This document shows positions 1 to 21,886 of a stretch of 64,000 nt of DNA, piece by piece (the first letter of the stretch is position 1; every line of letters starts with the position of its first letter). A program made the position numbers and the translations under genes. The notes beneath the pieces were generated by a model. The model was given only the letters and a program-made list of their open reading frames with translations, did no database searches and was not told the DNA's origin. Source of the DNA: Candidatus Eiseniibacteriota bacterium (GTDB taxonomy: Bacteria; Eisenbacteria; RBG-16-71-46; CAZAMP01). The DNA is taken from contig OZ245046.1 in NCBI GenBank assembly GCA_965224245.1, forward strand, positions 4,912,484 through 4,976,483, given 5' to 3'.

Positions 1-104
1 CAGAGCTGAAGCCGCGAAGTGGCGAAGCGATCGAGCTCGACCACATCCTGAGCCTATCGTGGAGGGCCTGGCGTAGCCCGGGCCCCAACAACAACCTCGG
101 GCAG

Positions 105-413
105 GTGGGGCACCAGGTCGACGAGATCGTGCTGACCCGGCACAAGTCGCTGCCCAATGGCGAGCAGCCGGCGGAGGACAGGACGGTCGCGGCTGCCGCG
201 GCACGCGAGCAAGACGCCTTCCACTCCGGCGAGATCACGGTGGCACGCCCGGAGGATCCGACGAACCCGGTACAGACGATCCGCTTCGACGAGGGTCACG
301 TGACGTCGATCCAGCAAGAGATCAACGGCAGCCGGTTCGTGGAGACGCTCAACATCGCCGTGAAGTCACTCCAGGTCGACGACAACATCTTCGAGCCGGA
401 ACCGGCGGAGTGA
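105..413 (+). CDS. Hypothetical protein; possible small tail/injection-system component preceding the spike gene. The start may lie upstream of the window.
   Basis: ORF with GC3-biased codon usage. Its stop at 411-413 overlaps the start of the next gene at 410 (ATGA-type coupling). No recognisable motif. Confidence 0.3.
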   Translation: MGHQVDEIVLTRHKSLPNGEQPAEDRTVAAAAAREQDAFHSGEITVARPEDPTNPVQTIRFDEGHVTSIQQEINGSRFVETLNIAVKSLQVDDNIFEPEPAE

Positions 414-1879
414 GTGTCACCGGTGCAGTGGCCCCCGGCGCGGACTGTCGGTTTCGGGTACTCGTGGACGACGATCGGCTCGACGGCATCGGCGACGTGA
501 CCATCGTCGAGGATCTCCGGGGCGGGGTGGATGCCAGGTTCGATCTGTGGCTCGACCCGGCGACTCGCATCCGGCCTGGCCAGCGCGTGACGGTTCGGGT
601 GGAGCGGGTGGGCAGGATCAACCACGACACCGAGATCCACACGTGGTGCCGTACCACGTCGACCTTTCGGGTCTCGGGCGAGCGGGCAACGTGCCGTACG
701 CACGCCACCGATCCCCTCCGCGTGCATCCGCCGCAGCCGGAGTTCCGGAGTCATGCCGGCGGTGTCGGGTTGCTGCAGCTCGCGCGCGCGGTGGCGCGTC
801 TGCCGAAAGGCGTGCGCGCGTCCGCCCAAGACGTACCGGTGCGCGCGGCCTGGCTTCTGCAAGCCGACGAATCCGCGGTCGAGTTCATGCACCGGGTAGC
901 GGCCGCGATCGACCACGTCGTGTTCTGGAGTCGAGACGAGCTGACCGCGGCGATGATCGGTGACGACCGCGAGGACCACGAGCTCGGCGACTTCGGCGAG
1001 GACGACGTTCTGCGAGCGACCTACGTGGAGTCGGTGGGCCTGCATGGGACCAACACGACGTGGATCCATCCGGAGACGCGATCGGTGCAGCAACGTCGTC
1101 AGGACCCGCACCGCTCGGGCGGTACGATCGCAACGCGTCGAAGCGCGTGGCGCGCCGGCGGCGCGGTCATGCCGGCACCGGCCGATGGTCTGTGGATGGC
1201 GACGACATTGTCGACACATCGGCCGGACGTCCGCCTCGGGTCGCGGCTCGAGATGGAGAACGGTCCCTGGATTGTCCACCGCGTCGAGCATCACCTCACG
1301 GCTCGCGGCACCTACGAGAACGTGATCCACGCCGTGCGCGCGGTGGACTGGGGACGTCCCGCGTACGCGCTGACGCCGTTGGTGATCGGCCCGCTGCACG
1401 CGACGGTGGTCGACAACGAGGATCCGGCTGCTCTGGGACGGATCCGTGTCGTCCTGCTCGAGGATCCTGACCGGCGTCCGACACCGTGGGTGCCTTACGG
1501 ATTTGCCTACGCGGGTCCAGCACATGGGATTCACTACGTTCCCGAGAAGGGCGACCTGGTCCTCGTGGATGCCGAGCCCGGCTCGCCCGAGCGTCTCTAC
1601 GCTCGAGGCAGCATCCGAAGCGCTCGGTCGCCGGTGCCCGACGATTGGCAGGTCCGTGGTAACGCGATCAAGACCTGGGTGACCCGGGGCGGCAGCGGTG
1701 TCGTCATCGACGACGGGAGCCGCACCCTCCGGGCGACCGCGGGCGCCATGCTGAGTGTGAACGCCGACGACCTGGTCGCCGAAGCGACGACTCTCCGACT
1801 CCACGCTGCCGGGAGTCTGGCGCTCGACGGTGACGAGCACGTCGCGATTCGGTCTCGCCGTCGCATCGATCTGGGGTGA
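410..1879 (+). CDS. VgrG / gp27-gp5-like spike protein (phage late control D / Rhs element Vgr family).
   Basis: The C-terminal half carries the gp5 OB-fold signature: 'ATVVDNEDPAALGRIRVVLLEDPDRRPTPWVPYGFAYAGPAHGIHYVPEKGDLVLVDAEPGSPERLYARGS'. Compare the VgrG consensus 'VVDNxDPxxxGRVRV...PW.R......G...G..F.PR.GxEVLV.F..GDPDRPIIxGxLYN'. It ends in short beta-helix-like repeats (VVIDDGSRTLRATAGAMLSVNADDLV...). At 489 aa it is short for a VgrG, so the N-terminal hub may be reduced or mis-started. Confidence 0.6.
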   Translation: MSVTGAVAPGADCRFRVLVDDDRLDGIGDVTIVEDLRGGVDARFDLWLDPATRIRPGQRVTVRVERVGRINHDTEIHTWCRTTSTFRVSGERATCRTHATDPLRVHPPQPEFRSHAGGVGLLQLARAVARLPKGVRASAQDVPVRAAWLLQADESAVEFMHRVAAAIDHVVFWSRDELTAAMIGDDREDHELGDFGEDDVLRATYVESVGLHGTNTTWIHPETRSVQQRRQDPHRSGGTIATRRSAWRAGGAVMPAPADGLWMATTLSTHRPDVRLGSRLEMENGPWIVHRVEHHLTARGTYENVIHAVRAVDWGRPAYALTPLVIGPLHATVVDNEDPAALGRIRVVLLEDPDRRPTPWVPYGFAYAGPAHGIHYVPEKGDLVLVDAEPGSPERLYARGSIRSARSPVPDDWQVRGNAIKTWVTRGGSGVVIDDGSRTLRATAGAMLSVNADDLVAEATTLRLHAAGSLALDGDEHVAIRSRRRIDLG

Positions 1880-3453
1880 ACATGTTCGAGCTGGAGGCAT
1901 TGACTCGCACCATGCTGGATGCGATCGACGATGTCGGCGCCGCCCTCGTGGAACGGACGCGCACCGCGTGCGCGAACGCGCTGCTGGCGGTGTCGGATCC
2001 AGGGCTTGCACTACCGTCTCCACCGGTCGCGCTGATGGAGTTCGACACGGACGAGACGGCAACCCTCGACCGACGGGCCTTGCTGCGGTCAGAGCTGGCA
2101 CTCAAGGCGTCAGGCGAGATCCTGGTGACTCCGGTGTGCGGGGACATCGTGGTTCATCCGTGGCGCATCGAGAGCGCCGAGTGGATCATGGACGACCCAC
2201 GCGACACCGGTGAGGACGATCCCAGGGTGGCGAGGGGCGTCGTGTGTCGGCTTCGGAGATCCCCGGCGTCGACTTGCACGCCGGGTCCCCTGACCGTGCA
2301 CGTGGGAGTGGACCCGGCGGTGGTTGGAAGCCTCAGACGGAGCATCGCGACGGCGCGCGCGATCGACGACTCGGACACCCAGCGACTGCTCGTCGTGGAC
2401 CGAAAGCCGGAGACGTATCTTGCCACACGGGTCCCCGTCGGTCCCACGACGACCGATCAGCAGGTCGCGGCACAGGAGGAGACGCTCGTCAGCGTGTATG
2501 TGACGCGCGAACTCTGCGAGCGCGAGTCATGGACGCTCGAGCTCCGCTTCGCGCGGCGAGCACTGGCCGTGTCGTCGACGCCGTCCGTGACGGCAAACGT
2601 GCACTCGGTCTGGAACTCCCTGTGGACGCGGTATCCAGAGCGCGCGTCGGTGCAGCAGACCGTGTCCGAGAACCGGAATCGCTGGGTACATGCGCTCGGG
2701 TCCCGAGACGTGGGATCGAGCTGGCGTGCGTGGAGCGTCGTTCGCGTCGGGACCTCACGGCGCCTCCATTCCGCCACGTCCTGGTTCGCGTCGACGGGCC
2801 GTTCGCCGGCGACCGACACACCGGCGCTCCTGCTGGCGTACGTCGGTGAACAGACGTCGCATCCCGAGCGACAAGTGCGCGCGACGTCTCCTACCCCCGT
2901 TCTGTCGATCGTGGTCGACGCGACCACGCGGCGACACCTGGACGATGCCCGCACGAAACTGACGGCGGAGTACTGGATCACGACGGGTGCCGACGGCAAT
3001 GGCGTTCCGGCTGGCACCGCATTTCACGTCGACTCACCCCTGTCGGCTCGTCTTCAGGGACGGCTCGTCACGTCGATGTGGGGTGGCACCGACGGCGCGA
3101 TGGGCCATGTGGTCGACTTCTCGGGAGACGAGCAGCCATCGGTGTTCGTGGCTCCACGTGGCTTGCTCACGGTGACTGACGCGATGAACATCATCGCGCG
3201 TGCCTCGGGAGGGATGCTGGACGTGGTCGATCCGCGGGACTTCCTTCGCTGGGGGGCAGCGTCGCCGATCGAGCCGCTCGTCGTGCGCGTGCGGTTCCGC
3301 GACCGCGTCCCCGGCCATCAGGGCGGAATCGTGCTGGCAGCGTGTCGCGGCGCACTCGAGCAGCGGATGGGCAGCGCGGTCGCGGCCGGACTCGTGCTCA
3401 CTTGCGACGAGATGCGAGATGGGGTCGCAATGGATGTTTCCGATGACGCGTAG
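1876..3453 (+). CDS. Hypothetical 525-aa protein encoded between the spike and PAAR genes; candidate adaptor, baseplate or cargo protein.
   Basis: Long ORF whose start overlaps the stop of the spike gene by 4 nt. Coding-type GC3 bias. No recognisable catalytic motif. Confidence 0.45.
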   Translation: MNMFELEALTRTMLDAIDDVGAALVERTRTACANALLAVSDPGLALPSPPVALMEFDTDETATLDRRALLRSELALKASGEILVTPVCGDIVVHPWRIESAEWIMDDPRDTGEDDPRVARGVVCRLRRSPASTCTPGPLTVHVGVDPAVVGSLRRSIATARAIDDSDTQRLLVVDRKPETYLATRVPVGPTTTDQQVAAQEETLVSVYVTRELCERESWTLELRFARRALAVSSTPSVTANVHSVWNSLWTRYPERASVQQTVSENRNRWVHALGSRDVGSSWRAWSVVRVGTSRRLHSATSWFASTGRSPATDTPALLLAYVGEQTSHPERQVRATSPTPVLSIVVDATTRRHLDDARTKLTAEYWITTGADGNGVPAGTAFHVDSPLSARLQGRLVTSMWGGTDGAMGHVVDFSGDEQPSVFVAPRGLLTVTDAMNIIARASGGMLDVVDPRDFLRWGAASPIEPLVVRVRFRDRVPGHQGGIVLAACRGALEQRMGSAVAAGLVLTCDEMRDGVAMDVSDDA

Positions 3454-3454
3454 C

Positions 3455-3985
3455 ATGCTGCACGATGCCGACACCCCTCGTCGAGAGCTGGGCATCGACG
3501 TCGGTCGACAGATCACGGAACGGATCGGGGAGCGCCTCGGCGCCGACGAAGGAGCCCGTGACGACGTCCCGGGGCGGGTGTCGAAGCAGCTCGGTGACGC
3601 GCTCGCGCTCCTCGCCTCGCCTCCGGTTCGACAGCGTCTCGACGAGCTGGAAACGCTGCTGGCCGTCGTGCTCACGACACCGTGGCACGTCGCCGCGATC
3701 GAGATCGCCAAGCCTCTGCCGCACGTGATCACCCGCTTCACGCGATCGGCGCACCGCGGAGCGCGCATCTCGGTGGGGAGAGGACGGCGCGCGAGCCGAA
3801 TCGGAGAATGTCGGGTCGCCGAAACGCCGATCACCGTGCACCTGCCACAGGTGAGTGAGGTCGGGCCGGATCAGCCGCGGGACTGGGTGCTCCGGGCGCC
3901 AGTCGGCACGGTCGTGCGGCCAGCCGAGGAGGCGCCGTTGGATGTCCGGGTCGGCGTCAGTTGCATCGAGGAGGATGCATCATGA
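3455..3985 (+). CDS. Hypothetical ~177-aa protein; candidate immunity or baseplate partner.
   Basis: The listed ORF 3200..3985 overlaps the previous gene in a different frame. The in-frame ATG at 3455 sits 1 nt after the upstream TAG (tagcATG). The 3' end overlaps the PAAR gene start by 25 nt. Confidence 0.4.
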   Translation: MLHDADTPRRELGIDVGRQITERIGERLGADEGARDDVPGRVSKQLGDALALLASPPVRQRLDELETLLAVVLTTPWHVAAIEIAKPLPHVITRFTRSAHRGARISVGRGRRASRIGECRVAETPITVHLPQVSEVGPDQPRDWVLRAPVGTVVRPAEEAPLDVRVGVSCIEEDAS

Positions 3986-4308
3986 GAGGTATCGCCCGCC
4001 GGGGCGATCGCATCGAAGGGGGTGTTCACTGCCACGGTGGCCACTCGCACCCTCCGCCGGCGAGCCCGGGCCGGATCGTCGGGGGCGCGCGCAAGGTGTT
4101 CGTCAACGGTCGCCCGGCGGCTCGCGCCGGAGACAGTGGGTACTCGCCGCTCTGCTGCGCCGGCATCGGCCGCATCTCGATCCGAGAGGACCAGATGCTC
4201 GTGTGGATCGAGGGAAAGCCGGCGGCTGGCGTCGGAACACCCACCATGCACTGCGACGTCGCCCCGGGACGCATTGCCACCGGAAGCACCGAGGTCCGCA
4301 TGCCGTAG
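3961..4308 (+). CDS. PAAR-repeat protein (spike-sharpening cone of contractile injection systems / T6SS).
   Basis: Literal PAAR motif 'VFVNGRPAARAGDSG', preceded by 'GDRIEGGVHCHGGHS'. A second repeat 'VWIEGKPAAGVGTPTMHCD' follows. Length is 115 aa. Confidence 0.85.
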   Translation: MHRGGCIMRGIARRGDRIEGGVHCHGGHSHPPPASPGRIVGGARKVFVNGRPAARAGDSGYSPLCCAGIGRISIREDQMLVWIEGKPAAGVGTPTMHCDVAPGRIATGSTEVRMP

Positions 4309-4388
4309 CGCGGCGTCCGGCTACACGGTGTCCGAAAAGGGCACCTCCCGCGCGTTCACTTGATGGACGCCATCAAGGGAGGTGAGAG

Positions 4389-5156
4389 ATGACGACGCGA
4401 ACGGGCGCGACCCGCTGGCCGGGCCGCCTCGGTGCACTGCTCGTACTGGTATGTGGGATACAGGCTTGCGAGAAGCCGACGGAGTCCGAGCCGGACGATC
4501 GACGTGAGTTCTCGATCCGCGCGACGCTGGGCGCCGACACGCCCGTGCGGGGCGCAACGGTGCGAATCCCGCTCGGGACTCGCTCGCTCAGTGAGCGAAC
4601 CGGTGACGACGGACGCTGCACGTTCTATTTCGAAAGGGATGAGGATCTTCCACCGCGCCTCGTCGCCACGATCGAGCACGCGTCGATCATGCCCGATGCG
4701 GTCGCGTTCGACACGTCCGGCGACGGGGACGCCCTCCGTCGCACGTGCGTTCGACGACCGTCGACGACGTACGTCGAGGACGTGACGCTTCACCACCTCG
4801 GGAACGATCGGTACGGTGGCGACCCCAACTCGCAGCTCCAGATTCCGTCTCAGGGGATCTCGCAGACGTACCGCTTCCACCTCGACACGTATCCGTCACG
4901 GATGCCGACGATCCGGCTCTATGCGCGAGGCATCCAGCATCCGACACGGATTCAGCTCAACGGACAGACGGTGTCGCGGCTCGGGGACAGCGACCCGTCG
5001 GGCGGGCTGAGCAGGTACAACTTCCGGCTCGGGGGCGCTCCGCGTTCGGTGCTCCGTCCCGGCATGAACACGCTGACCGTTCACACCGCCCCGTACAACG
5101 AGAGCGATCCGTGGGACGACATCGAGTTCTGCGCGCTGATGCTGTACTTCGAGTAG
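4389..5156 (+). CDS. Secreted protein or lipoprotein, unknown function.
   Basis: N-terminal signal peptide 'RLGALLVLVCGIQAC'. Coding GC3 bias. RBS-like 'GGAGGTGAGAG' before the ATG. Confidence 0.5.
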   Translation: MTTRTGATRWPGRLGALLVLVCGIQACEKPTESEPDDRREFSIRATLGADTPVRGATVRIPLGTRSLSERTGDDGRCTFYFERDEDLPPRLVATIEHASIMPDAVAFDTSGDGDALRRTCVRRPSTTYVEDVTLHHLGNDRYGGDPNSQLQIPSQGISQTYRFHLDTYPSRMPTIRLYARGIQHPTRIQLNGQTVSRLGDSDPSGGLSRYNFRLGGAPRSVLRPGMNTLTVHTAPYNESDPWDDIEFCALMLYFE

Positions 5157-5194
5157 CGGCGCCCCATCGCGGGGTGGGCGAGCAAATGGGATCG

Positions 5195-5227
5195 AGGCGA
5201 CTCGGCACGGAGGGCGCCGAGTCGCCT
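5195..5227. terminator. Bidirectional stem-loop between convergent genes.
   Basis: Perfect 12-bp inverted repeat 'aggcgactcggc' / 'gccgagtcgcct' with a 9-nt loop. It lies between the ends of the 4389..5156 (+) gene and sod (-). Confidence 0.45.
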
Positions 5228-5238
5228 AGCAATGGACG

Positions 5239-5850
5239 CTAGCCGCGCGCGGCGGCGTACAGCGATCCAACCTTGTCCCAGTTCACGACGTTCCAGAACG
5301 CCGAGATGTAGTCCGGCCGGCGATTCTGGTAGTGGAGGTAGTACGCGTGCTCCCACACGTCGAGTCCGAGGATCGGCGTGTAGCCCTGCATGTACGGCGA
5401 GTCCTGGTTGGCGGTCGAGAACACCTCGAGCTTGCCGTTCTTCACCGCGAGCCAGGCCCAGCCGCTGCCGAATCGGGTGGCGCCGGTCTTCGAGAACGCG
5501 TCCTTGAAGGCGTCGAAGCCACCGAGCTCGGAGCCGATCGCCTTGCCGAGATCGCCCGACGGCGCGCCGCCGCCGCTCGGTCCCATGATCTGCCAGAAGA
5601 GTGAGTGGTTGGCGTGGCCACCGCCGTTGTTGATGACGGCCTGTCGAGCCGAATCCGGGATGTCGCCGATGCCACGCAGCACGTCCTCGATCGACTTCGA
5701 CGGGAAGGCGGAGTGGCCCTCGAGCGCCTTGTTGAGGTTCGTGACGTAGGCGTTGTGGTGCTTGCCGTGATGGATCTCCATCGTGCGGGCGTCGATGTGC
5801 GGCTCCAGCGCGTCGTGCGCGTACGGGAGGTCGGGCAACGTGAAGGCCAT
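5239..5850 (-). CDS. sodA: Superoxide dismutase, Fe/Mn family.
   Basis: Motifs '[14 protein letters not shown]', '[29 protein letters not shown]' and 'FGSGWAWL'. Full length 203 aa. Whether it is Mn or Fe type is not resolvable by eye. Confidence 0.95.
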
Positions 5851-6300
5851 GTCGAGGCTCCTCTCGGTGTGAAAGACGTCGGTTTCGGATGGTCAAGGAC
5901 CCCTCGCGCTCGGGCGGCGAGGGGCGGCGGGTCGCGTGGCGCGGTCCCGCGGCGCGGGCGATGGTGCGTGCTCACCGTCAGCGGCGGACGGGCCGTCCAA
6001 TCGACGAGTGGAACAGGGTACCACCGCGGGCACGCCGGCGAAAGGGACGCCCGCTCGCCGGCGCTGTCGCGTCGAGCGACAACACGTGTGCTCGCAGAGC
6101 GTTAGCGTGACCCGAACGACGACCCCGCAAGGACGCGCGGCGACCCGGCGGGGACTCGTGGAACGCCCCCGGGTGGAAACGCGCGGACACGCCCCCGGGT
6201 TCCGTCCCGCCGTGGGTGGACGGCGGCCCGTCCCCACGTCTCACGCCGACACCCGGGTGTCGGCTTTCCCCGCGCCGCCCTCGCGTGCGAAGCTTCCGCC

Positions 6301-7125
6301 ATGAAACGACCCGGACAGCGCCTCGACGCGTTCCTCGCGCACGCCGGCGTCGGATCTCGTTCGGAGGTCCGCCGCCTCATTCGCTCGCGCCGGATCGTCA
6401 CGGTCGACGGCGAGACGTGCATCGATCCCGGGCGTCACGTGTCGACCGAGACGATCGCGGTCGACGGCACGATCGTCGCCGCCGCGCCCACCGACGTCGT
6501 GCTCCTGATGCACAAGCCCCTGGGACACGCGTGCAGCCACGACGTCGCCGAGTCGCCCACCGTGTTCGAGCTTCTGGACGACGTCTACACGGGTACGTCG
6601 CTCCAGTGCGTGGGCCGCCTCGACCGCGAGTCGTCCGGCCTCCTCGTGCTCACCGACGACGGTCAGCTCAATCACGCGCTGACGCATCCGAAGCGCAAGG
6701 TGCCGAGGCGGTATCGTCTCGTCTACGAGGGCGAGCTCGTGCCGGACGCCGTCCAGCGGGTGGCGGAAGGGATCGTGCTCCGGGACGACGAGCGGCCGAC
6801 GAGGCCGGCGGTGCTGACGCTCGGGGAGGCCGTCGCCGGGGCCGACGCGTCGCCACCCGGGCACGCCGCGACGATCGTGCTCAGCGAGGGCCGGTACCAT
6901 CAGATCCGGCGGATGATCGCCGCGCTCGGTGGACGCGTCGTGTCGCTGCACCGGGATCGGATCGGTCGGCTGGAGCTGCCGGCCGATCTCGCGCCGGGCG
7001 AGTCGCGCCCGGCGACCGCGGAGGAGCTGGAGCGTCTCGTCACGTCCGACCAGGTCCGGGGCACCGTCACGTCGACGCGCGACGACCCATCGCCATCATG
7101 CGAGTGCAAGCCGTCGCGCGAGTGA
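6301..7125 (+). CDS. rRNA pseudouridine synthase, RsuA/RluB/RluF family (N-terminal S4 domain).
   Basis: Catalytic motif 'GRLDRESSGLLVLTDDGQLNHALTHPKRKVPRRY'. S4-like N-terminus 'LDAFLAHAGVGSRSEVRRLIRSRRI'. Confidence 0.85.
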   Translation: MKRPGQRLDAFLAHAGVGSRSEVRRLIRSRRIVTVDGETCIDPGRHVSTETIAVDGTIVAAAPTDVVLLMHKPLGHACSHDVAESPTVFELLDDVYTGTSLQCVGRLDRESSGLLVLTDDGQLNHALTHPKRKVPRRYRLVYEGELVPDAVQRVAEGIVLRDDERPTRPAVLTLGEAVAGADASPPGHAATIVLSEGRYHQIRRMIAALGGRVVSLHRDRIGRLELPADLAPGESRPATAEELERLVTSDQVRGTVTSTRDDPSPSCECKPSRE

Positions 7126-7136
7126 CCTCCGGAACG

Positions 7137-9164
7137 TCACTCGGCCAGGACGACGCGCACCGCCCGCACGCCAGGGCTCCCTCGCACGAAGTACACGCCA
7201 GGAGCCACCCGGTCCCCGCGGTCGTTGCGCGCATCCCAGTCGAACCGTCCGCCCAGCCCCGGCACGGTCGATCGCACGACGCGGCCGGTCGCGTCCAGAA
7301 CCTGAACCGATCGAGGCGGTCCGGTGACGCCGTCCAGGACCACGCTCACCCGCTGCGTGAACGGATTGGGGACCGCACGACGCGTCACCGACCGTTCATC
7401 GACCACGGGCCCCTCCACGTCGAGCGACGACAGGAGGTCGTCGATCACCCCGGTCATCAACAGGGGGTCGTAATCACAGGATCGGTACGCGACCCTCCCG
7501 TCGGGGTCGATGATGAAGTCACGCGGGAACGGAGATGCGCAGTTGTGAATCAGGTAGTCGACGTACGTCGCCGAGGTCCCCGCCGGATCGGCCAGGATCG
7601 GGAACGTCACGCCGAACTGATCGGCGAAGTCGGCCGCGATCGCGGCCGACTCCCCCCGGTCGATGCCGAGCACCACCACGCCGTCGGCCTGGTACGTCTG
7701 CCAGATCGTCACCTCGAGGTCCGAAAACTCCGGACCGCACACCGGTCACCAGGATGCGAAGAAGGCGAGAAGGACCACCCGGCCTTCGTAGTCGGACAGC
7801 GTGTACGTGAGTCCGTCGATGCCCGGCAACGAGAAGTCGGGAGCGTCGTCCCCGACCTGGAGCGTCGTCGGGTTCCCCTCGAGATAGACCTGCGTCATCG
7901 GCTCGTCGGGGTCGTTGCTGGCCAGGCGCAGCGACGCCACGTAGTCCTCGCCGCCCGGGGAGGTGAACGTGACCACCACGTCGCGGGATTCGTCTTCGCC
8001 GAGCATGAAGGGGCCCGTGTCCACGCTGAACGCCCCGGCGCCGGACCCCCCGAGGTTCACACCCGTGACGTCGAGCACGCCCACGCCCGTGTTCGTCACC
8101 GTGACGATCGCGTCGGCGCTCTCGCCGGCGGGTACGTCGTCGGCGACGAACTCGTCGGGAGTGGCGCGAATGTCCGGCGACACCTCGGCGCCGTACTCGT
8201 ACACACGGAACGTGGACCAGTCGGCGACGTAGATTCGCGTGCCCTCGGCCACGAGACCCATGGCACGATAGGGCGTGTCCTCCCAGCCGACTCGCGTCGG
8301 AACGGACGGGATCGAGACGTCGACGACCGAGAGCTCCTCCCACTCGGCCACGTACAGAAGGGATCCCGAGAGATGGAGGTTGAACGCCGTCAGCGACGTG
8401 TCGTAGGTGCCGACCAGGACCGGCAGATCCGGATTCGAGAGGTCGTACACGTCGGCGCCGTCGGTCCCGACCGCCGTGGCCAGCAGTCCGCCGTCGGACG
8501 TGATGTCCTGCGCGACGCCGGATCCCGCGACGGATGCGAGGTGAACGGGGCTCCCGGGCGCGGACACGTCGAGGACCGACACGCCGCCCGCGCCGTCGGC
8601 CACGTAGAGCCGATCGTCCACCAGCACCATGCGGTAGGCGTTCTGGACGCCGTCCGTCACGACGCTCACCGGCGCCGGGTTCGCCGGATCGGTCAGGTCG
8701 AGCACCTGGATCCCGGCGTCGTGTCGCGCCGCGTACAGCGTCGTACCGTTTCGCAACACGCCCTCGATCTGGATGCCCGGAAGATCGATCGTGTCCACGA
8801 CGTGGGGATTCGTGGGATCCGAGAGATCGTACGTGCGGAGACCGTTCTCACGGGCTCCGCAGTAGCCGTGCGCGGCGCCCAGCGCCATTCCGTAGTATGC
8901 GACGGTCTGATCCGATCCGACGAGGCTCGGCGCGCCGGGATCGCCGACGTCGTAGACGCTGAGTCCCCCGGTTCCGATCACGTAGACCGTGTCGCCGACC
9001 TTCTCCGCGTCGAGGTAGTGCACGAAGAACGTCGGCCTGAACGCGCCGAGGAGCTCGACGCCGTCGCTGGCCTCGGCCCCGGTGCCGAGCAACGCCAGTG
9101 CACCGCCGACGAGGACGCGCGGCACGATCCGGCCCGCGCCCGGGCTGTTCGAACGGGATGACAT
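7137..9164 (-). CDS. Candidate selenoprotein. It reads as a secreted LVIVD beta-propeller, then a TlpA-like thioredoxin with a UxxC motif, then a FlgD-Ig/T9SS-type C-terminal domain. It is annotated as two ORFs (7746..9449 and 7137..7742) separated by an in-frame TGA at 7746-7748.
   Basis: Signal peptide '[32 protein letters not shown]', starting at ATG 9164 after the RBS 'GGGAGGGAG'. LVIVD-like repeats are present. The Trx fold starts '[32 protein letters not shown]', reaches the TGA, and continues in the same frame as 'PVCGPEF...[10 protein letters not shown]...[11 protein letters not shown]'. The TGA is therefore at the first Cys of the WCxxC motif. The C-terminus has 'NPF...[12 protein letters not shown]...[21 protein letters not shown]'. 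The alternative reading is a nonsense pseudogene. Confidence 0.5.
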
Positions 9165-9378
9165 GGCTCCCTCCCGGTTCCGGCCGGATCTCGGACTGCG
9201 CGACGCGGCGAGGCCGTGATCGCGCTGGACGGGGCGAGGCGCTCGGGAATCGAGAAGATCGTACCACGCGGAGGGGGCCAGATCGTCCGGGCCCATGCAC
9301 AACGGCCTCGGCCGAGGCGACCGAGAAGCGCTCTCGTTCCGAGGCCGCCGATGGAGACGATTCACCGCCGAACGGCGA

Positions 9379-11655
9379 TCACGGGAGCCGCACGACCCGT
9401 CGCACGTCCGTGCGTGCGCCCGTGTCGAGGCGGACGACGTACACCCCACTCGCGATCACGCGGCCCCTGTCGTCGAGACCGTCCCACGCGAGGTCGTGTC
9501 GCCCGGCATCGAGTCCTCCGGCGAGCAGCGTCCGGACCGACCGCCCGCGCACGTCGAAGACGCCCACCCTTACGTCGGTCGGCCACTCGAGCGTGAACGC
9601 GAGCGTCGTGGAGCTGCGGAACGGGTTCGGTCGGCTCACGAGACGCGTCACGACGTCGCTCACCGGCGGGGTGTCGAGCGCGCCGCCGAGCGCGTGAGCC
9701 GGCAGCACGACGATGTCCCCCGGATAGCTGCCGTTCGTCAGCATCACGGTCTCCTCGTCGGCCGCGATCTGCGACAGCACGAGCCCGGGCTCGGTGTACT
9801 CGCCCACGAGCACCGGGGCGATCGGGTCGCTCCAGTCGATCACGTAGAGCGTGCCCGATGCGGTGCCGGCGTAGACGATCTCCCCGGCGCCGGTGGGCGC
9901 GCCTCCGTCGGAGGACACGACGGCCAGCGTGCGTGCGCCCACGTCGATGGAGGCGACCTCGGAGCCGACCGCGAAGTCGTATCGCACGACGCGTGCGCCC
10001 GGCTCCACCGAGCTGCCTAGGTACACCTGTTCGGGAACCGAGGAGGGCGCGACCGACTCGACTCCCGTCAGCGGCGTCACGTGGTCGATCACCGGCGCGT
10101 CCGGATCGCCGACGTCCCAGCGCGCGGTCTGGCTGGTCGTCGCGACGACGGCGAACGTGCCGTCCACGTGAAACTCGTTCACCGCGTTGGGGGTCGCACC
10201 GAAGCCGCGGTCGAAGGGGGCCTCGGGCGTCGAGACGTCGACCACGTAGAACCCGAGCGGCGACGAGCTCGAGCGCACGACGCGGCTGCCGTCCGGCGTC
10301 GCGTCCACGCTGGAGCTGAAGCCGGGAAGCGATCCGACGATCGCCGGGTTCGCGGGGTCGGTGAAGTCGACGATGTCGAAGCCCGCGAGCCCGCCGGCCA
10401 CCGCGAGCGATCGCTCGGTTGGCCCCCCCGCCGCGACGCGCAAGAGCTCGTGCTTGTAGTGGCGGAGCCGCTGGACGGCGGCCGCGCCCGTCTCACCCAG
10501 AAGGACCGGGAGGCACGGATTGATCACGTCGTACACGCGGATCCGCCCTCCGGACATCCCGCCTGAGTCGGACATGAGCATGTGGTTGCCCATCGGGCGG
10601 GTGAGCGCCGCCGGCACCACGAACTCGTCGGCGAGGCGAGCGAGGGGGCTCGGCGTCATACCGTTGCCGTGTCGATACAGCACGAGCTCCGGGCTCGTTC
10701 CACCGCGCCGGGTGAGGAAGCGATCGCCGTGCGAGGAGACGCGACGGACACCGTGGTGGCCGCGCAGGGTTCCAATCCGTTCGAGAGCCTCCGACAGCAC
10801 GTGAACGAGATCCTCTCCGGCGGCGATCGTGGACGTCCCCGGGGCCCGCGCCACGGCCACGATGTTCGTCAGGTCGATGTTCTCGCCGAGCGGGATCGGA
10901 GGCGACGTTCCGTACCGCTTGACGCCGGCGCCGGTCGCGAGAACGATCTCGTGGTTACCGTTCAGGGCGACGTCGCGCACCGTGCCGGGGACGGTTGTGA
11001 CGAGGCTCGTCGGGGGCTCCATCGTGAGATCCGAGACGACGAGCACGGCGGACCCGACGAAGGCGGCAGTGCCGGCGTGGGCATCGTGCGCGAGGGTCGC
11101 CTCCTCCGCAAACGGGATGGCGGCCGACGTGAGGCTCGGGCCGCACGGCGAGGTGAGACGCACGACGACGGCGCCCAGGCCGTACTGCACGACGAGGTCG
11201 TTCCCGGACAGAGAGATCGACCCGACGTCGCCCACGGGGCCGAGGTCGATCGTCTCGACGAGGGTCGGGTTCTCGGGATCGGAGAGGTCGTAGCGCCTCA
11301 CGACGTCCATACCGGCGACCCAGAGGCACGTGCCGTCGGGCGAGGCCACGACGTCGAACGCCTCGTCGCCGAAGCTCCCGATCTGCTCGCCGTCGTCGGC
11401 ATGGATGTCGACCCCGAAGTCCCCGACCGCCACGTAGGTGTAGGAGTCCACCGAGACGGCGCCGTACTCGTCCTCCTCTCCGAGCCGTTCCCCGGCCGGG
11501 CGCCGCCCGTCCAGGTCGATCCGGCGGATTCGCCGCGCGTACTCCTCGTAGTCGATGGCGTCGCCCGTGGCGCCGGCCGGCGCGGGCAACGAGATCGTGG
11601 CCGCCGCGGCCACGATGAGGGTCAGGGAAAGAACGAGATGGGACTCGAGACGCAT
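9379..11655 (-). CDS. Secreted LVIVD-repeat beta-propeller protein with a FlgD-Ig/T9SS-type C-terminal domain.
   Basis: Signal peptide '[29 protein letters not shown]'. Repeated '[12 protein letters not shown] / [13 protein letters not shown] / [10 protein letters not shown] / [13 protein letters not shown]' motifs. C-terminal '[15 protein letters not shown]...[17 protein letters not shown]...[22 protein letters not shown]'. Confidence 0.7.
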
Positions 11656-11757
11656 GGACTTCCTCCGATCGGTTGCCGGCTCGCGGGCGGGGCTTCTTCT
11701 CGGAGGTATTGGTGCGGGGAGGCTGGATTTCTTCCGGGGACCGGCGGTTTTTCGTCC

Positions 11758-14700
11758 CTACGGCAACGCCACCAGCCGCCAGAGCTGGCGCGGGACCGCT
11801 CCCGTCACCGCGAGGATGGGCGGATACCGATCTCCGTCGTCCACGTAGTCGAGGGACCGCCCGACCCCGCCCCCGCTCGTGCGGAGCCGGTACAGGTAGT
11901 CGCCGCCCAGCTCCACCGCGGTCAGCGTCCAGTACTGGTCCGCATCGTCGGCCACATCGACGATCGTGGCGGGCGCGCCGCCGTCTCCCCCGTCGATGAC
12001 GCGGTCGACCCCGAGCACCACCGGTGAGAGGCGCAGGAAGCCGGTCGTGCCGACCGGACCGAGCCGCCACCGGGACGCGTCCGAGTCGTCGGTTCCCATG
12101 AACAGAAGCGGCGGCTCGATCGCGCTCACGGTCAGGCGCTCTCCGGACACCAGCGTGGCGTTCGTGATCCGGTACACGTCGCCGGCGTCGAGATCCTCGC
12201 GCGGGCCATACTCGATCACGTAGCCGTTCATGTCGTCGGTGTCGAGCTGGGTGTCGTTCCAGCCGCTCGTGCGGAGCTCGAGGAAGTCGGAGTCCCCGAC
12301 GACGTCATTCGGACGACCGAACGCCCAGGCCGTGAACGCGAACGGCTCGCCGGTGACCCACCGCCACCCGCCGTCGGGCTCGGCGGAATCGACGTCGCCG
12401 TCCACCTGGTAGCCGCCGATCCACACCGGCTTCGTCGCGAACGGCACGAGCGCGTCCACGAACGCGTTCTCGTCGGCGTCGGCGATGCATGCGAGATAGC
12501 CGCGCAGGCCCAGGTGTGTCCGGGCGGCCGCGTCGGCCCGTGCGGCGGGCCAGGTGATGTCGAGCTGCTCGACGAGCTCGTAGTAGTGACCGTTGGCCCC
12601 GTTCAGGACGACGTTGCCGAAGAGCACCTCGGTCGTGAAGGTCCAGTTCACGCCGGCGATCAGCGGATTGCCGGCGAGGTCGGTGACGGAGCCCGTCACC
12701 ATCGCCGTGTACGAGCGCCCGCCTCCGAGCGGAGCCGCCGGCGTGAAGGTCGCGCTCGCGCCGACGGCGTCGACGGTGCCCGCCACCGCGCCGTCGGGGC
12801 CGGTCACGAAGAACGACGAGCTGGTCACCGTGGCCGGGTCGATCGGCTCGTCGAACGTGACGCTGACCGTCGCCGACACCGGCACGTCCACGGCGCCGTT
12901 CGGGGGATCGAAGTCGATGGCGAGGGGGCCGCGATTCGTCTCGAACGTCCATACGGCGCCCGCGGCGATCGGGCTGCCGTCGAGGTCGGTGATGTCGGTC
13001 GTCAGCGATGCCTCGTGGACCGACGCGCTCTCGAGCGGCGCGGACGGCACGAAGGTCGCCGTGGGTCCGCTGACGTTCAGCGAGCCGTCCACGTCCACGC
13101 CGTCCCGGCGCACGCGGAACGACGTGGGCGTCACGCTGCCCGGATTCACGTCCTCGGAGAACGTGGCCACGACCGAGGCGCTCTCGTCCACGTCGGTGGC
13201 GCCGTCGGCCGGGGACGTCTCGATGACGCGCGGCGGATCGGGGTCGAGCGTCGTGAAGCCGGCGTCGAACGCCACCAGCGGATTCCCCGCGAGATCCTGG
13301 ATGCCGGTCGTGAGCTCGACGGTGTACGCGGTGAAGCCGTCGAGGTCACCGGTCGGCGTGAACGTGGTCGTGCTCCCGACCGTGGAGCGCGTGCCGTCGA
13401 CCGGCGGCGGGCCGCCGGTCGCGCGCACCCGGAACGTGCCGGCGGTCACGCTCCCCACGTCCTCGGAGTACGTGACCGTGATCACCGCGTCGAGGGGAAC
13501 GTCCACGGCGCCGTCGGCGGGGTCGATGGTGAGGACGGTTGGGCTCTCGGTGTCGACGGGCACCGTGGTGAAGCTCCAGATCACGTCGGTCTGCAGGGGG
13601 TTGCCCGCGAGGTCGGTGATGGCGGTGGTCAGGGTCGCCGTGTACGGGATGTCGCCGTCGAGCGGCGCCAGCGGCGTGAACGTGACGGCATCTCCGAACG
13701 TGGACACGGCCACGTCTCCGGCCACCGAGCCGCGCGGACCGGTCAGCATGACGCTTCGCCCGTCGACGGTGGCGGGGTCGATCTCCTCGGAGAACGTCGC
13801 CGACACGACGACGTCGAGGGGCACGTCCACCGCGCCGTCGACCGGAAACCGCTCCAGCACACCGGGGGCCTCGACGTCGGCGACCGTGAACGTGGACGTG
13901 AAGACCGCGGCGAGCGGGTTGCCGGCGAGGTCCTCGATGCCCGTCTCCAGACGAACGGTGTACGTGGTCGCGCTCGCCAGCGCCGCCGTCGGATCGAACG
14001 TGGCCATGTTCCCGGACGCGGACACGCTGCCGGCCACGGTCCCCGTGGGTCCTTCGAGCGAGAACGTCGACGGGGTCACCGATGCTGGATCCACGTCCTC
14101 GGAGAACGTCGCCGTGATCGAGACGCCCGGGGCCTGATCCACCGCGCCGTCGGCCGGTGAGATGCCGGTGACGCTCGGCGGCGTCACGTCGGCGATCGTG
14201 AACGACCAGACGACCTCCTCGGCAAGCGGGTTGCCGACGACGTCGGTCACGGCGCGGGTGATGCGGGCGGTGTACGCCGTCTCGCCGGCGAGGTCGGCCG
14301 AGGGTGTGAACGTGGCCGTGTTTCCGGCGGCCGCCGCGGCGCCCCCGACGGCGCCGCCGGGACCGGTGAGCGTGAACGACGCCGGCGTCACCGTGGACGC
14401 GTCGATCTCCTCGGAGAACGACGCCCGCACGACGACGTCGGGGGCCACGTCCACGGCCTCGTCGGCCGGCTCGGTGCTGGTGACGACCGGCGGCTCGGTA
14501 TCGACGAACGCGGTGGTGAAGGACCACTCGACGCCGGCCTCGAGCGGGTTGCCGGCGAGATCGCGGATGCCGGTGGTGATGCGCGCCGTGTACGCAGTCG
14601 AGCCGGTCAGCGGCGCCGACGGCGTGAGCTGCGCACTGGAGCCGCTCGCCTCGACGACGCCGGCGACGTCGCCGCCCGGGCCCGAGAGCGTGAACGTCTC

Positions 14701-17616
14701 GGCCGTCGCGCTGGCCGGATCGATCGGCTCGGAGAAGCTCGCGCTGACCACCACGCCGGGCGAGACGTCCACCGCCTCGTCGGCCGGCGACGTGGCCGTG
14801 ACGCGGGGAGGCTCGACGTCGCTCGTCGTGAACGACCACGTGAACTCGGCGGCGAGCGGGTTGCCGGCGAGGTCGGTGATGCCGGTGGTGAGCCGAGCGG
14901 TGTACGTGGTCGCGCTGGCCAGGTCGTCCGTGGGGTCGAAGGCGATGGCGCGGCCCGCGGCGTTGACGCCACCGGTCACCGCGCCGCCGGGGCCGGTGAC
15001 GCGGAACGTCGACTCGGTCGCCGTCGCGGGATCGATGTCCTCGGAGAGCTCCGCGCTCACGATCACGTCCAGCGGCACGCCGGTGGCGCCGCTCGCCGGG
15101 AGCGTGGTCACGACCGCGGGGCCCTCGACGTCGACCGTCGTGAACGACCAGGTGACGTCGGCGGCGAGCGGGTTGCCGGCGAGGTCGGTGATGCCGGTGG
15201 TGAGCCGCGCGGTGTATGTCGCGTCGCTGGCCAGGGGTCCGAACGCCTGGAACGTCACGGCGCTGCCGCTGGCGTCGACGCTGCCGGCAACGGCACCGCC
15301 GGGGCCGATCAGCGTGAACGTGGACGTGGTCACCGACGCGGGGTCGACGTCCTCGCTGAACGCGGCCCCCACGACGACGTCGAGCGGCACGTCGATCGCG
15401 CCGTCGAGCGGCTGCGTCGCGGTGACCGAGGGGGGCACGACGTCGGCGGTGGTGAAGCTCCACTCGACGTCCGACGCGAGCGGGTTGCCCGCGAGGTCGG
15501 CGATGCCGGTGGTGAGCCGCGCGGTGTACGTCGTCGAGCTGGCGAGCGTCGCGGTGGGCGCGAACGACGCGCTGCTGCCGCCGGCTCCCACCATGCCCGT
15601 CACGGATCCCGCGGGACCCTGCAGCGTGAACGTGGTCGCGTCGACCGTGCCGGGGTCGATCACCTCGGAGAACGCCACGCCGATGGCAATGTCGGGGGGG
15701 ACGTCGGTCGCGCCGTCGGCGGGGGTCGTCCGCGTGACGGTGGGCGGATCGACGTCGCTGAGCGCGGTCGTGACCGACCAGGTGACGTCGGCGCCGAGCG
15801 GGTTGCCGGCAAGGTCGGTGATGCCGGTCGTGACGCGCGCGGTGTACGCCGTCTCTCCGTCGAGAAGGGCGCCGGGCGTGAACGTCGCGGCGGCCCCCGC
15901 CGCGTCGATCGTCCCGGCGACCGCGCCGCCGGGTCCGGTGAGCGTGAACGTCGACGGAGTGACGCTGAGCGGATCGACGTCCTCGGAGAACGTGGCCACG
16001 AACACGGCGCCCGGCGAGACGTCCACGGCGCCGTCCTCCGGCGACGTGTCGACGACCACCGGGGGGTCGACGTCGACGATCGGCGCGGTCGTGAACGACC
16101 AGACGACGGGCTGCGCGAGGGCGAACCCGGTGAGGCTCCGGACCGACGTCGTCAGCCGCGCGGTGTAGGTGGACTCGCCCGCCAGCGGCACCGACGGCGT
16201 GAACGTGGCGACGTCCCCGCCGGCGCCGGTTCCTCCGGACACCGCGCCCGCGGGGCCGGTGAGCGTGAACGACGCACCGGTCACCGACGTCGGATCGACC
16301 GCCGCGCTGAACGTCGCCCGGACGACCGCGTCCCACGCGACGCCGGTGTCGCCGGCGTCCGGATCGGTGGCGAGCACGTCGAACGCCGGGCGCGCCGCGA
16401 CCTCGATCACCGAGGAGTCGAAGCGGCTGGGGTCGGCGTTGGACGTGGCGGTCGCGACGGTGGCCCCGACGCTCACACCGGTGACGTTGCCGCTGACGTC
16501 GACCCGGGCCACGCTCGGGTTCCCGGTCGACCACGTGAGGGCCCGATCGACGCCGGGCGATGCATCCACGACCGCGGCCAGGGGCGCGACCTGACCGACG
16601 ACGATCCGGAGCGTGTCCGGCGACACCCGGACGCCGCGCACGCCCTCGTCACGCGGGCTCGTCGTGATGTCGTCCGAGCAGCTGGACCCGATCACGACGG
16701 CGATCACGGAGCCGACCGCGATCGCGACCAGCGGTAGTCGCGCGAGGGGGTGGCGCGCACCGGCCGATGCCGGGCGGGGCGACGGATGCCGGGACGATGC
16801 GTCACGGGACGATGGGCGACGGGGCGATGCGTGACCGGGCCGGTGGTGGCGCTGGCGGGTGCGCCGGGTGTGTCCACGGCGAGAGAGCGTCCACTGCACG
16901 GGTGTCCACCTCGGTGTCTCGGCCACCGCCCCGAGACGGAGGCAGACGTCCGGGGGTTCCGACGAGGGCGGTGTGGCGGCGGCCGTGGCTGTCTCGCGAG
17001 CGTCTACGGCTCGCCCATCGGACCGTTCGGCGCGAGAGATGGTCACATTATACGTGTGGGATGCCAAGTCCCGGGCGCGCCGGGGGCGCTGGCGGGTGAA
17101 TCGCCGGGAAGTGGTTGCAAGAGACCGGCGGAGAGACGGCACGGGCCGGATCGACGGCGCGTCCGGGACGCCGGCGGGGGCCCGGGATGCGGTGGGGCCC
17201 CGGGACGCCGGCGGGGCCCGGGATGCGGTGGGGCCCCGGGACGCCGGCGGGGCCCGGGACGCCGGCGGGGCCCGGGACGTCGGCGGGGCCCGCGACGTCG
17301 GCGGGGCCCGGGACGTCGGCGGGGCCCGCGACGTCGGCGAGGCCCGCGACGTCGGCAGGGCGCGCGACGTCGGCAGGGCCGAGGCGTCGGCAGGGCCGAG
17401 GCGTCGGCAGGGCCGAGGCGTCGGCAGGGCCGAGGCGTCAGCGGGGATAGGGACGTCTGCGGGCCCGGGAGCTCGACCCGCCGTGGCACCCCGCTGGGGC
17501 CTCAAGTCGCTGCAATAGTACACTTTACACTTGATTCCGGACTCGGTTTGGGTTACGCTCCCAGCATCGATCAGCCCCCGATCGACGTCTCCGATCGCTC
17601 CCCGGGTCCACGCCAC
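11758..17616 (-). CDS. Giant secreted adhesin-like protein with about 15-17 tandem Ig-like (Big/SbsA-type) domains, a C-type lectin-like domain and a C-terminal beta-rich domain. Its true start is probably near 16.8 kb.
   Basis: About 95-aa repeats of the form '...TFTLTGPGGAVAGxVxAxGxxATFTPSAPLAxxTxYTARLTTGITDLAGNPLAxDVxWSFTT'. CTLD-like segment 'NGHYYELVEQ...YLACIADADENAFV...WIGGYQ...GGWRWVTGEPFAFTAWAFGRPND...WNDTQLDTDDMNGYVIEYGP'. A signal-peptide-like segment 'RLPLVAIAVGSVIAVVIGSSCSDD' lies about 290 codons into the maximal ORF. The region upstream of it is a Pro/Thr/Arg low-complexity translation of a DNA tandem repeat, so the real start is uncertain. Confidence 0.65.
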   Translation of the reverse strand: MAWTRGAIGDVDRGLIDAGSVTQTESGIKCKVYYCSDLRPQRGATAGRAPGPADVPIPADASALPTPRPCRRLGPADASALPTSRALPTSRASPTSRAPPTSRAPPTSRAPPTSRAPPASRAPPASRGPTASRAPPASRGPTASRAPAGVPDAPSIRPVPSLRRSLATTSRRFTRQRPRRARDLASHTYNVTISRAERSDGRAVDARETATAAATPPSSEPPDVCLRLGAVAETPRWTPVQWTLSRRGHTRRTRQRHHRPGHASPRRPSSRDASSRHPSPRPASAGARHPLARLPLVAIAVGSVIAVVIGSSCSDDITTSPRDEGVRGVRVSPDTLRIVVGQVAPLAAVVDASPGVDRALTWSTGNPSVARVDVSGNVTGVSVGATVATATSNADPSRFDSSVIEVAARPAFDVLATDPDAGDTGVAWDAVVRATFSAAVDPTSVTGASFTLTGPAGAVSGGTGAGGDVATFTPSVPLAGESTYTARLTTSVRSLTGFALAQPVVWSFTTAPIVDVDPPVVVDTSPEDGAVDVSPGAVFVATFSEDVDPLSVTPSTFTLTGPGGAVAGTIDAAGAAATFTPGALLDGETAYTARVTTGITDLAGNPLGADVTWSVTTALSDVDPPTVTRTTPADGATDVPPDIAIGVAFSEVIDPGTVDATTFTLQGPAGSVTGMVGAGGSSASFAPTATLASSTTYTARLTTGIADLAGNPLASDVEWSFTTADVVPPSVTATQPLDGAIDVPLDVVVGAAFSEDVDPASVTTSTFTLIGPGGAVAGSVDASGSAVTFQAFGPLASDATYTARLTTGITDLAGNPLAADVTWSFTTVDVEGPAVVTTLPASGATGVPLDVIVSAELSEDIDPATATESTFRVTGPGGAVTGGVNAAGRAIAFDPTDDLASATTYTARLTTGITDLAGNPLAAEFTWSFTTSDVEPPRVTATSPADEAVDVSPGVVVSASFSEPIDPASATAETFTLSGPGGDVAGVVEASGSSAQLTPSAPLTGSTAYTARITTGIRDLAGNPLEAGVEWSFTTAFVDTEPPVVTSTEPADEAVDVAPDVVVRASFSEEIDASTVTPASFTLTGPGGAVGGAAAAAGNTATFTPSADLAGETAYTARITRAVTDVVGNPLAEEVVWSFTIADVTPPSVTGISPADGAVDQAPGVSITATFSEDVDPASVTPSTFSLEGPTGTVAGSVSASGNMATFDPTAALASATTYTVRLETGIEDLAGNPLAAVFTSTFTVADVEAPGVLERFPVDGAVDVPLDVVVSATFSEEIDPATVDGRSVMLTGPRGSVAGDVAVSTFGDAVTFTPLAPLDGDIPYTATLTTAITDLAGNPLQTDVIWSFTTVPVDTESPTVLTIDPADGAVDVPLDAVITVTYSEDVGSVTAGTFRVRATGGPPPVDGTRSTVGSTTTFTPTGDLDGFTAYTVELTTGIQDLAGNPLVAFDAGFTTLDPDPPRVIETSPADGATDVDESASVVATFSEDVNPGSVTPTSFRVRRDGVDVDGSLNVSGPTATFVPSAPLESASVHEASLTTDITDLDGSPIAAGAVWTFETNRGPLAIDFDPPNGAVDVPVSATVSVTFDEPIDPATVTSSSFFVTGPDGAVAGTVDAVGASATFTPAAPLGGGRSYTAMVTGSVTDLAGNPLIAGVNWTFTTEVLFGNVVLNGANGHYYELVEQLDITWPAARADAAARTHLGLRGYLACIADADENAFVDALVPFATKPVWIGGYQVDGDVDSAEPDGGWRWVTGEPFAFTAWAFGRPNDVVGDSDFLELRTSGWNDTQLDTDDMNGYVIEYGPREDLDAGDVYRITNATLVSGERLTVSAIEPPLLFMGTDDSDASRWRLGPVGTTGFLRLSPVVLGVDRVIDGGDGGAPATIVDVADDADQYWTLTAVELGGDYLYRLRTSGGGVGRSLDYVDDGDRYPPILAVTGAVPRQLWRLVALP
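17160..17455. repeat. Tandem repeat array: about ten 18-bp units 'cgggacg(c/t)cggcggggcc', then 4 x 17-bp 'gaggcgtcggcagggcc'.
   Basis: Read directly from the sequence. It lies in the 5' extension or upstream region of the giant minus-strand gene and translates to PTSRAP repeats in-frame. Confidence 0.8.
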
Positions 17617-17694
17617 CCCCCGGACCAGGCTCTTCCGTGACCGCGCGTTCGTCTCGCCGCCGTCGCGTGACGCGGGTCAGTCGAGGGATCACCC

Positions 17695-21842: not shown

Positions 21843-21886
21843 CGTGCGGTGGCGGGGTTCGCCAACGGGATCGGGCGGGTCCGCGT

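Follow-up and report, generated by a model that had tools for sequence, protein, structure and literature searches.

When a gene for a VgrG-type spike and a gene for a PAAR cone protein enclose two genes whose products have no recognisable domains, are the enclosed proteins cargo, or are they parts of the machine that drives the spike? The question is raised by the first 4308 positions of a 64,000-nucleotide (nt) stretch of DNA from a Candidatus Eiseniibacteriota bacterium (assembly GCA_965224245.1, contig OZ245046.1, positions 4,912,484 to 4,976,483 of the forward strand), hereafter called the window. A first-pass annotation had described this block as a truncated spike module that was either an orphan spike and cargo island or the end of a machine lying upstream of position 1. 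We favour the latter, with a probability of about 0.7: window 1..4308 would be the final part of the structural operon that encodes a divergent, compact contractile machine akin to a type VI secretion system (T6SS), and its gene order would read, at the same probability, hcp/tssD-like, vgrG, open reading frame (ORF) C (tssF/gp6-like), ORF-D (proposed as tssG/gp7-like) and PAAR. The block looks like the final third of a T6SS-like cluster, rare and very divergent, that continues upstream, and its seemingly truncated and orphan state is an effect of the window edge.

Spike and PAAR protein

The two proteins by which the block had been recognised, a gp27-gp5-like spike and a canonical PAAR, withstood closer analysis. 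In the spike, the OB domain PF04717 is matched at E=6.9e-13 (49 bits against a cut-off of 23.8). The protein consists of a gp27-like N-terminal part, the OB fold at residues 330-397 (nt 1397-1600) and a short C-terminal beta-helix, and it carries no C-terminal effector extension. Positions 51-493 of the 501 in the spike-family profile align with the Bacteroides fragilis VgrG of PDB entry 8gra (8gra_I, E=2.5e-29), a VgrG-PAAR-effector complex; the further PDB matches of the spike are 9jg8, 7aef_q, Pvc8 and Afp8. The best spike of an extracellular contractile injection system (eCIS) or other contractile injection system against the same profile is AlgoCIS 7aef_q, at E=1.6e-16. Judged by its sequence, the 489-amino-acid (aa) protein is a VgrG-type gp27-gp5 spike with the full fusion in one chain. 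The spike had been called unusually short, and the length is correct; however, spikes of 489-508 aa occur throughout the loci examined, and the shortness is a family trait in which the C-terminal extension is missing and no domain is. In one related locus (L018, see below) two genes are called in place of one spike gene, the first gp27-like (2369-3265, 298 aa) and the second gp5/OB-like (3255-3872, 205 aa); the split may be real or may stem from a frameshift or an assembly error.

The last gene of the block encodes, as far as sequence can identify it, a canonical PAAR cone protein (PF05488, E=1.3e-16, 61 bits against a cut-off of 27), which also matches phrog_281, has the PAAR 4jiw as its top PDB match and bears no extension domain. 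With 56-61% identity to the PAAR proteins of related loci, it is the best-conserved gene in the block. The start first assigned to it, TTG 3961, is too far upstream; ATG 3982, with a GAGGAGGA Shine-Dalgarno sequence ahead of it, fits both the deposited protein of 108 aa (P0152) and the homologues of 107-108 aa. Profile searches, which the first-pass annotation had proposed, thus recovered PF05488, while the NCBIfam VgrG models TIGR01646 and TIGR03361 matched the spike far below their cut-offs and no adaptor or toxin family was matched. Neither VgrG nor PAAR bears an effector domain. Cargo, adaptor or immunity genes had been suspected between the two; the only variable genes lie after PAAR.

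Conserved gene order in related loci

The relatives of the block are few. Run with HMMER against 1.84 billion representative proteins, a concatenated query of spike, ORF-C and ORF-D gave, among the matches listed, about 17 full-length relatives of the spike (474-517 aa, 28-39% identity) and about 22 of ORF-C (485-541 aa, 27-35% identity), which makes the spike/ORF-C family very small for a database of this size; ORF-D found only itself among the 150 best matches listed. Word-indexed homology searches with the spike, ORF-C and the ORF-C alignment returned the query alone. Related loci were recovered with a hand-built, degenerate DNA pattern of 138 nt spanning the NVxPVWNS...W..W motif of ORF-C and by exact-protein look-ups, and they were compared by BLASTP. 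The pattern gave five matches in GTDB genomes, all by chance, none in IMG/VR, and eight in metagenomes, two of them true. Nine independent related loci with 62-69% GC were obtained: L009, L014 (with L007 and L015), L016, L017, L018, L019, L022, L023 (with L024) and a Logan contig from ERR15459708, which carries protein P0006. The L019 group also includes L020, the NCBI metagenome-assembled genome GCA_036001465.1, and L021.

As far as the contigs reach, the order of spike, ORF-C, ORF-D-position gene and PAAR is identical in all nine other loci (Table 1). All six loci that extend upstream have TssB-like, TssC and Hcp-like genes ahead of the spike, and a ClpV-like double AAA+ ATPase gene adjoins the sheath genes in each of the five that reach far enough. 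The assignment of TssC comes from PF17541, which is matched above its gathering score in L016 (E=4e-11), L017 (2e-10) and L018 (7e-8), below threshold in two of the other upstream-reaching loci and weakly in the sixth; the TssC-like family profile found nothing significant in the PDB. The TssB-like gene matches no family and is labelled by its position only. The ATPase matches AAA_2 (E=4e-42), ClpB_D2-small and the ClpV model TIGR03345 (E=7e-96). The cluster opens with three conserved genes, X1, X2 and X3, and a hydropathy scan placed one strong transmembrane segment in each of the latter two. No Pfam or NCBIfam family was matched by X1-X3 in L014, a test of little power, given that divergent homologues would escape it. 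As for the window itself, a scan of 25 larger ORFs in 4386..64000, which passed over several stretches lacking a qualifying ORF, gave no sheath, tube, baseplate or phage family. The rest of the machine is outside the window, as had been noted at first, and the gene order of the relatives, together with an Hcp-like gene cut by the window edge, fits its continuation upstream of position 1.

This cut gene, ORF-A, had been taken as a whole gene at 105..413. Its frame is open from base 3 of the window with no in-frame stop upstream, and its alignment with homologues of 143-147 aa leaves only about 8-10 N-terminal residues beyond the edge. It is an edge-cut gene, and the block therefore holds five co-directional, coupled genes and not the four first counted, although the ORFs and overlaps then described are real. 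ORF-A is 31-40% identical to the proteins of 143-147 aa encoded between TssC and the spike in L014, L016, L017, L018, L019 and L023, with E=1e-25 in pairwise comparison with the Hcp-like proteins of related loci and 1e-21 to 1e-29 in pooled BLASTP. Against the TssD family PF17642 it scores E=0.003-0.007 (17-18 bits, below the cut-off of 25.8), and the sole PDB matches of its family profile are the Bacteroidales TssD structures 7yw0 and 9qwl at E of about 0.02. Its position and its size in the relatives fit Hcp/TssD.

The junctions within the block were read directly from the sequence as GTGA overlaps between ORF-A and the spike (410-413) and between the spike and ORF-C (1876-1879). The ORF-C stop TAG (3451-3453) is followed by an ORF-D ATG at 3455, and ORF-D and PAAR share an ATGA overlap (3982-3985). 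The GC content by codon position marks the ORFs of the block as coding, with 0.79-0.88 at third positions (GC3) and 0.42-0.61 at second positions (GC2). In protein clusters at 90% identity, the spike, ORF-C, ORF-D, PAAR and the adjacent superoxide dismutase (SOD) are each singletons, all of them on one NCBI/ENA contig of 6.45 Mb, and an Rfam scan of the window found no RNA family. The GC3 of the genes from spike to PAAR (410-4308) is 0.79-0.82, below that of ORF-A (0.88) and of most neighbours (0.82-0.92), which could reflect different expression or foreign origin.

Table 1. Genes of the block, their counterparts in related loci in 5' to 3' order, and TPR + CHAT genes near three of these loci
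Locus	Feature	Coordinates	Strand	Length and remarks
Window	ORF-A (Hcp/TssD-like, 3' part)	3..413	+	136 codons inside the window, frame from base 3
Window	Spike (VgrG-type)	410..1879	+	489 aa
Window	ORF-C	1876 or 1882..3453	+	525 or 523 aa by start choice; deposited start ATG 1882, 523 aa (P0002)
Window	ORF-D	3455..3985	+	176 aa, or 188 aa from the deposited start ATG 3419 (P0003)
Window	PAAR	3982..4308	+	108 aa
Related loci	1, X1			about 410 aa; no recognised family
Related loci	2, X2			200-330 aa; one strong transmembrane segment
Related loci	3, X3			680-720 aa; one strong transmembrane segment
Related loci	4, Clp/Hsp100 double AAA+ ATPase, ClpV-like			734-773 aa
Related loci	5, TssB-like by position			about 150 aa; sometimes with N-terminal fusion
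Related loci	6, TssC sheath			467-472 aa
Related loci	7, Hcp-like tube			143-147 aa
Related loci	8, VgrG-type spike			490-508 aa
Related loci	9, ORF-C homologue			499-524 aa
Related loci	10, ORF-D-position gene			135-237 aa
Related loci	11, PAAR			107-108 aa
L014	TPR + CHAT protein	15779-18925	-	homologous to those of L019 and L023
L019	TPR + CHAT protein	14633-18052	+	homologous to those of L014 and L023
L023	TPR + CHAT protein	17563-20985	+	homologous to those of L014 and L019

In L019 (6649-8076) and L023 (6730-8061), the TssB-like gene carries a fused N-terminal segment of about 300 aa. L017 has this segment as a separate gene of 366 aa (673-1773) between the ClpV-like and TssB-like genes.

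ORF-C as a predicted baseplate wedge protein

Both middle proteins had been described as lacking recognisable domains, and neither ORF-C nor ORF-D gave a credible match in Pfam, NCBIfam, PHROG or the sequences of the PDB. The ORF-C family alignment contains the motifs NAxL..ADP.LVLPSPAV, VHPW, NVxPVWNS....YP, WGG.DG and PL.VRVRF; it matched no Pfam family, and its profile found nothing among PDB sequences. A sub-threshold CsoSCA_C match in ORF-C (E=4.7e-4, in one of 23 family members) was rejected as chance. Structure prediction, which had also been proposed for the 525-aa protein, returned a gp6/Baseplate-J/TssF wedge fold. The structural matches, with the figure for each in brackets, are the PlPVC1 baseplate chain 9qgl_A (11.3), phage P1 BplA (9.7), diffocin TRI-2 (9.3), Pvc11 (9.3), phiCD508 Baseplate-J (7.8), Mu gp47 (7.8), Afp11 (7.3) and the T6SS TssF 6giy_A (6.4, with 335 residues aligned). 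Foldseek searches against the PDB and against viral models again gave baseplate-J and wedge proteins. Because the structural and Foldseek matches point to such proteins, we assign ORF-C, on its predicted fold, to the gp6/gpJ/TssF class of baseplate wedge proteins and not to cargo. The window protein is about 30-37% identical to its relatives, and the sequence is kept in every related locus found. No relative was found by tblastn in INPHARED phages or PLSDB plasmids.

In the auxiliary clusters of T6SS subtype i (T6SSi), the slot between vgrG and PAAR typically holds cargo, and cargo, adaptors or immunity proteins had accordingly been expected there. Under such a reading the block would be an orphan or auxiliary vgrG island, with ORF-C and ORF-D serving as adaptor, effector or immunity proteins on the VgrG-PAAR tip of a machine encoded elsewhere, and the missing sequence domains of both proteins and the fast evolution of ORF-D would be in keeping with it. 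We nevertheless consider it highly improbable. Both genes are colinear in every related locus, ORF-C with a sequence conserved throughout and ORF-D with weak similarity, and where the contig reaches, the ORF-C orthologue stands inside a full sheath-tube-spike operon. Besides the predicted wedge fold of ORF-C, ORF-D keeps its slot and size class while the variable genes follow PAAR, and the first ORF of the window is an Hcp-like gene that crosses its edge. The block shares with the hcp-vgrG-PAAR islands of T6SSi (orphan vgrG islands are reviewed in PMC13098142) co-directional hcp, vgrG and PAAR genes with unassigned genes between the last two; in contrast to these islands, the intervening genes are of a conserved structural type and not variable cargo, and in the relatives sheath and ATPase genes are contiguous with the block. 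No adaptor family (DUF4123, DUF1795, DUF2169) or toxin family was matched in the block.

ORF-D as a proposed wedge partner

The ORF-D slot is filled by a gene for 135-237 aa in all nine related loci that reach this position. Sequence similarity is weak but significant between the window and L017 (E=2e-5) and L016 (E=8e-5), and the counterparts have in common a helix motif and the motif LPVGT. No other gene of the block evolves as fast as ORF-D: PAAR keeps 56-61% identity to the relatives, and ORF-C and the spike about 30-37%. A single-sequence AlphaFold2 model of it reached a predicted local distance difference test score (pLDDT) of 36.8 and was unusable. To our knowledge, all characterised contractile baseplates have a gp6-like gene followed by a gene for a small partner (gp7, P2 gpI, Mu gp48, diffocin TRI-1 or TssG), and because of this order we propose, by analogy, that ORF-D could be a TssG/gp7/P2-gpI-like partner of ORF-C.

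ORF-D could otherwise be a lineage-specific chaperone or adaptor for PAAR, VgrG or the cargo encoded after PAAR, in which case the TssG equivalent would be found among X1-X3. Its rate of evolution, its range of lengths and its translational coupling to PAAR through the ATGA overlap agree with such a role, and an adaptor would be expected to co-vary with its cargo because the genes after PAAR do vary. We regard this alternative as unlikely, although not to the point of neglect, and retain the wedge partner as the working proposal for ORF-D.

Comparison with known contractile systems

The nearest known system is, by sequence comparison, the T6SS of subtype iii (T6SSiii) of Bacteroidota, such as those of Bacteroides fragilis GA3 and Flavobacterium johnsoniae. 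It provides the best match for VgrG (8gra, near full length) and for TssC (PF17541), and a weak one for TssD/Hcp through PF17642, 7yw0 and 9qwl; the sheath of the relatives is likewise encoded by two genes and accompanied by a ClpV-like ATPase, and the spike bears a small PAAR as its cap. There are also differences. The family spike is about 110-130 aa shorter, and ORF-C, at about 510 aa, falls short of TssF by about 80-100 aa and is recognised by no TssF sequence model. TssE, TssG, TssK and TssN-R were not recognised in the 10-kb flanks of the relatives, where three conserved, unrecognised proteins stand instead, of which two are predicted to span the membrane once. Very low identity is all that is shared with any Bacteroidota protein. 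Membership in subtype iii is not established.

The block might also be part of an eCIS, of a tailocin of the Afp, PVC or diffocin kind, or of a myophage-tail remnant rather than of a T6SS. The top structural matches of ORF-C come from the baseplate proteins of PVC, P1, diffocin, Pvc11 and Afp11, and the spike, with 489 aa, comes closer in length to Afp8 and Pvc8 (529-538 aa) than to the VgrG of T6SSi. Phage P2 has the gene order V-W-J-I, which the order of spike, J-like and I-like genes recalls. We hold such an origin to be improbable, however. Unlike the eCIS and tailocins (Afp8/Afp11, Pvc8/Pvc11, diffocin TRI-2/TRI-1) and the V-J-I arrangement of P2 and Mu, the relatives carry a small and a large sheath gene, the large one being of the TssC family PF17541, and a Clp/Hsp100 double AAA+ ATPase gene adjoining them. 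Among the genes called in the 10-kb flanks of L014, L019 and L023, no Pfam family of a phage-type sheath or tube, gp25, tape measure, fibre, cap, LysM hub or capsid was found, nor the single-ring AAA+ ATPase that marks eCIS operons. In contrast to a P2- or Mu-like myophage, the spike is a full gp27-gp5 fusion, and SOD and housekeeping genes lie downstream. The search for ORF-C relatives in INPHARED was empty, as was that for its motif pattern in IMG/VR, and against the spike profile the T6SSiii VgrG of B. fragilis outscores every eCIS spike by about 13 orders of magnitude. The sheath pair, the Clp ATPase, the separate PAAR and the single-pass membrane proteins of the relatives are evidence for a T6SS over an eCIS, a tailocin or a prophage.

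Several observations weigh against a T6SS-like machine. The Hcp assignment of ORF-A comes from sub-threshold sequence matches. The ATPase scores about 1e-96 against ClpV, ClpB and ClpA alike, and falls below every equivalog cut-off. No TssE/gp25, TssK or known membrane complex was recognised in the relatives. ORF-D evolves far faster than its neighbours, and its copy in L023 has no BLAST similarity to the others. Finally, we infer the sheath and ClpV genes of this genome from synteny in the relatives only.

Current classifications recognise four T6SS clades and restrict subtype iii to Bacteroidota (PMC13584744, PMC4793230; reviews to August 2026). We hypothesize, tentatively and at somewhat less than even odds, that the loci represent an unclassified fifth clade that is nearest to T6SSiii, with an operon of about 11-12 genes from X1 to PAAR, found only in rare, high-GC and mostly uncultured lineages and having a baseplate and a membrane anchor beyond sequence recognition. 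Such a clade may have a baseplate reduced to a J/I wedge of the phage kind. The literature searched contained no description of the family, and papers outside that set may hold one.

Proposed mechanism and significance

By analogy with solved T6SS and phage baseplates, we infer a machine with secretion activity that could work as follows. Three copies of VgrG would form the spike, with one PAAR sharpening its tip, and ORF-C would form the baseplate wedges around it, probably as a dimer with one ORF-D, like (TssF)2-TssG or (gpJ)2-gpI. Hexamers of the Hcp-like protein stacked on VgrG would make up the inner tube, and the TssB/TssC sheath, whose genes are expected just upstream of the window, would polymerise on the baseplate. 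Contraction of the sheath would expel the tube, the spike and any bound cargo, and the ClpV-like ATPase would then recycle the contracted sheath.

If this reading is true, the known diversity of T6SS is widened by a rare and compact cluster that is linked to T6SSiii by its sheath, tube and spike. Its ORF-C wedge looks more like the gp6/J type of phages and eCIS, and the other parts are unrecognisable; the cluster would offer a minimal natural baseplate for studying the descent of T6SS baseplates from those of phages. It would also mean that profile-based T6SS surveys miss whole lineages. Proteins of the ORF-C type (about 510 aa) gain a testable annotation as baseplate wedge proteins.

Genes after PAAR and elsewhere in the window

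The genes after PAAR are non-homologous between loci by BLASTP. In the window, a protein of 255 aa (4389..5156, plus strand) is encoded 80 nt past PAAR, with a strong Shine-Dalgarno sequence and an N-terminal signal- or lipoprotein-like sequence. It matches nothing in Pfam, NCBIfam or PHROG, and none of the related loci encodes a homologue. Its membership in the system is uncertain, and lineage-specific cargo, an immunity protein or an unrelated protein would all be conceivable. On the ERR15459708 contig, PAAR is followed by genes for 248 aa (2767-3513) and 186 aa (3534-4094, PF27349 IcsB_M), which are a candidate effector pair.

A protein of 1048-1140 aa with TPR and CHAT domains is encoded 3-6 kb downstream of PAAR in all three loci that reach there (Table 1), and it may be a regulator or protease tied to the system. 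The sole CHAT protein of the window (48585-51632, minus strand) lies 44 kb off and resembles those of the related loci in the CHAT domain only. Near L018 (6429-7960) and L019 (18182-19712), an extracytoplasmic function (ECF)-sigma-like protein is encoded together with a partner of 260-286 aa that has one transmembrane segment. The L018 protein matches Sigma70_r2 at E=2e-4 and the L019 copy is homologous to it; the couple looks like a sigma/anti-sigma pair. L014 has the transmembrane partner only (18941-19723).

Downstream ORFs of the window encode SOD, a pseudouridine synthase, ribonucleotide reductase, Msr enzymes and surface proteins. The ribonucleotide reductase is of class II (Ribonuc_red_lgC, Ribonuc_red_2_N, TSCPD), and an Intein_splicing match was found in one window ORF that is not linked to the reductase protein. 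ARAGORN called a tRNA-Cys at 28452-28531 (plus strand), inside an ORF of 1611 codons with high GC3 (26875..31707, plus strand), and this call is probably a false positive. Among the 25 large ORFs scanned (7137-17676 and elsewhere), five match FlgD_ig and three LVIVD repeats, and a giant protein, probably the ORF of 1973 codons at 11758..17676 (minus strand), matches Big_5 at E=2e-267; together, these ORFs suggest many secreted surface proteins.

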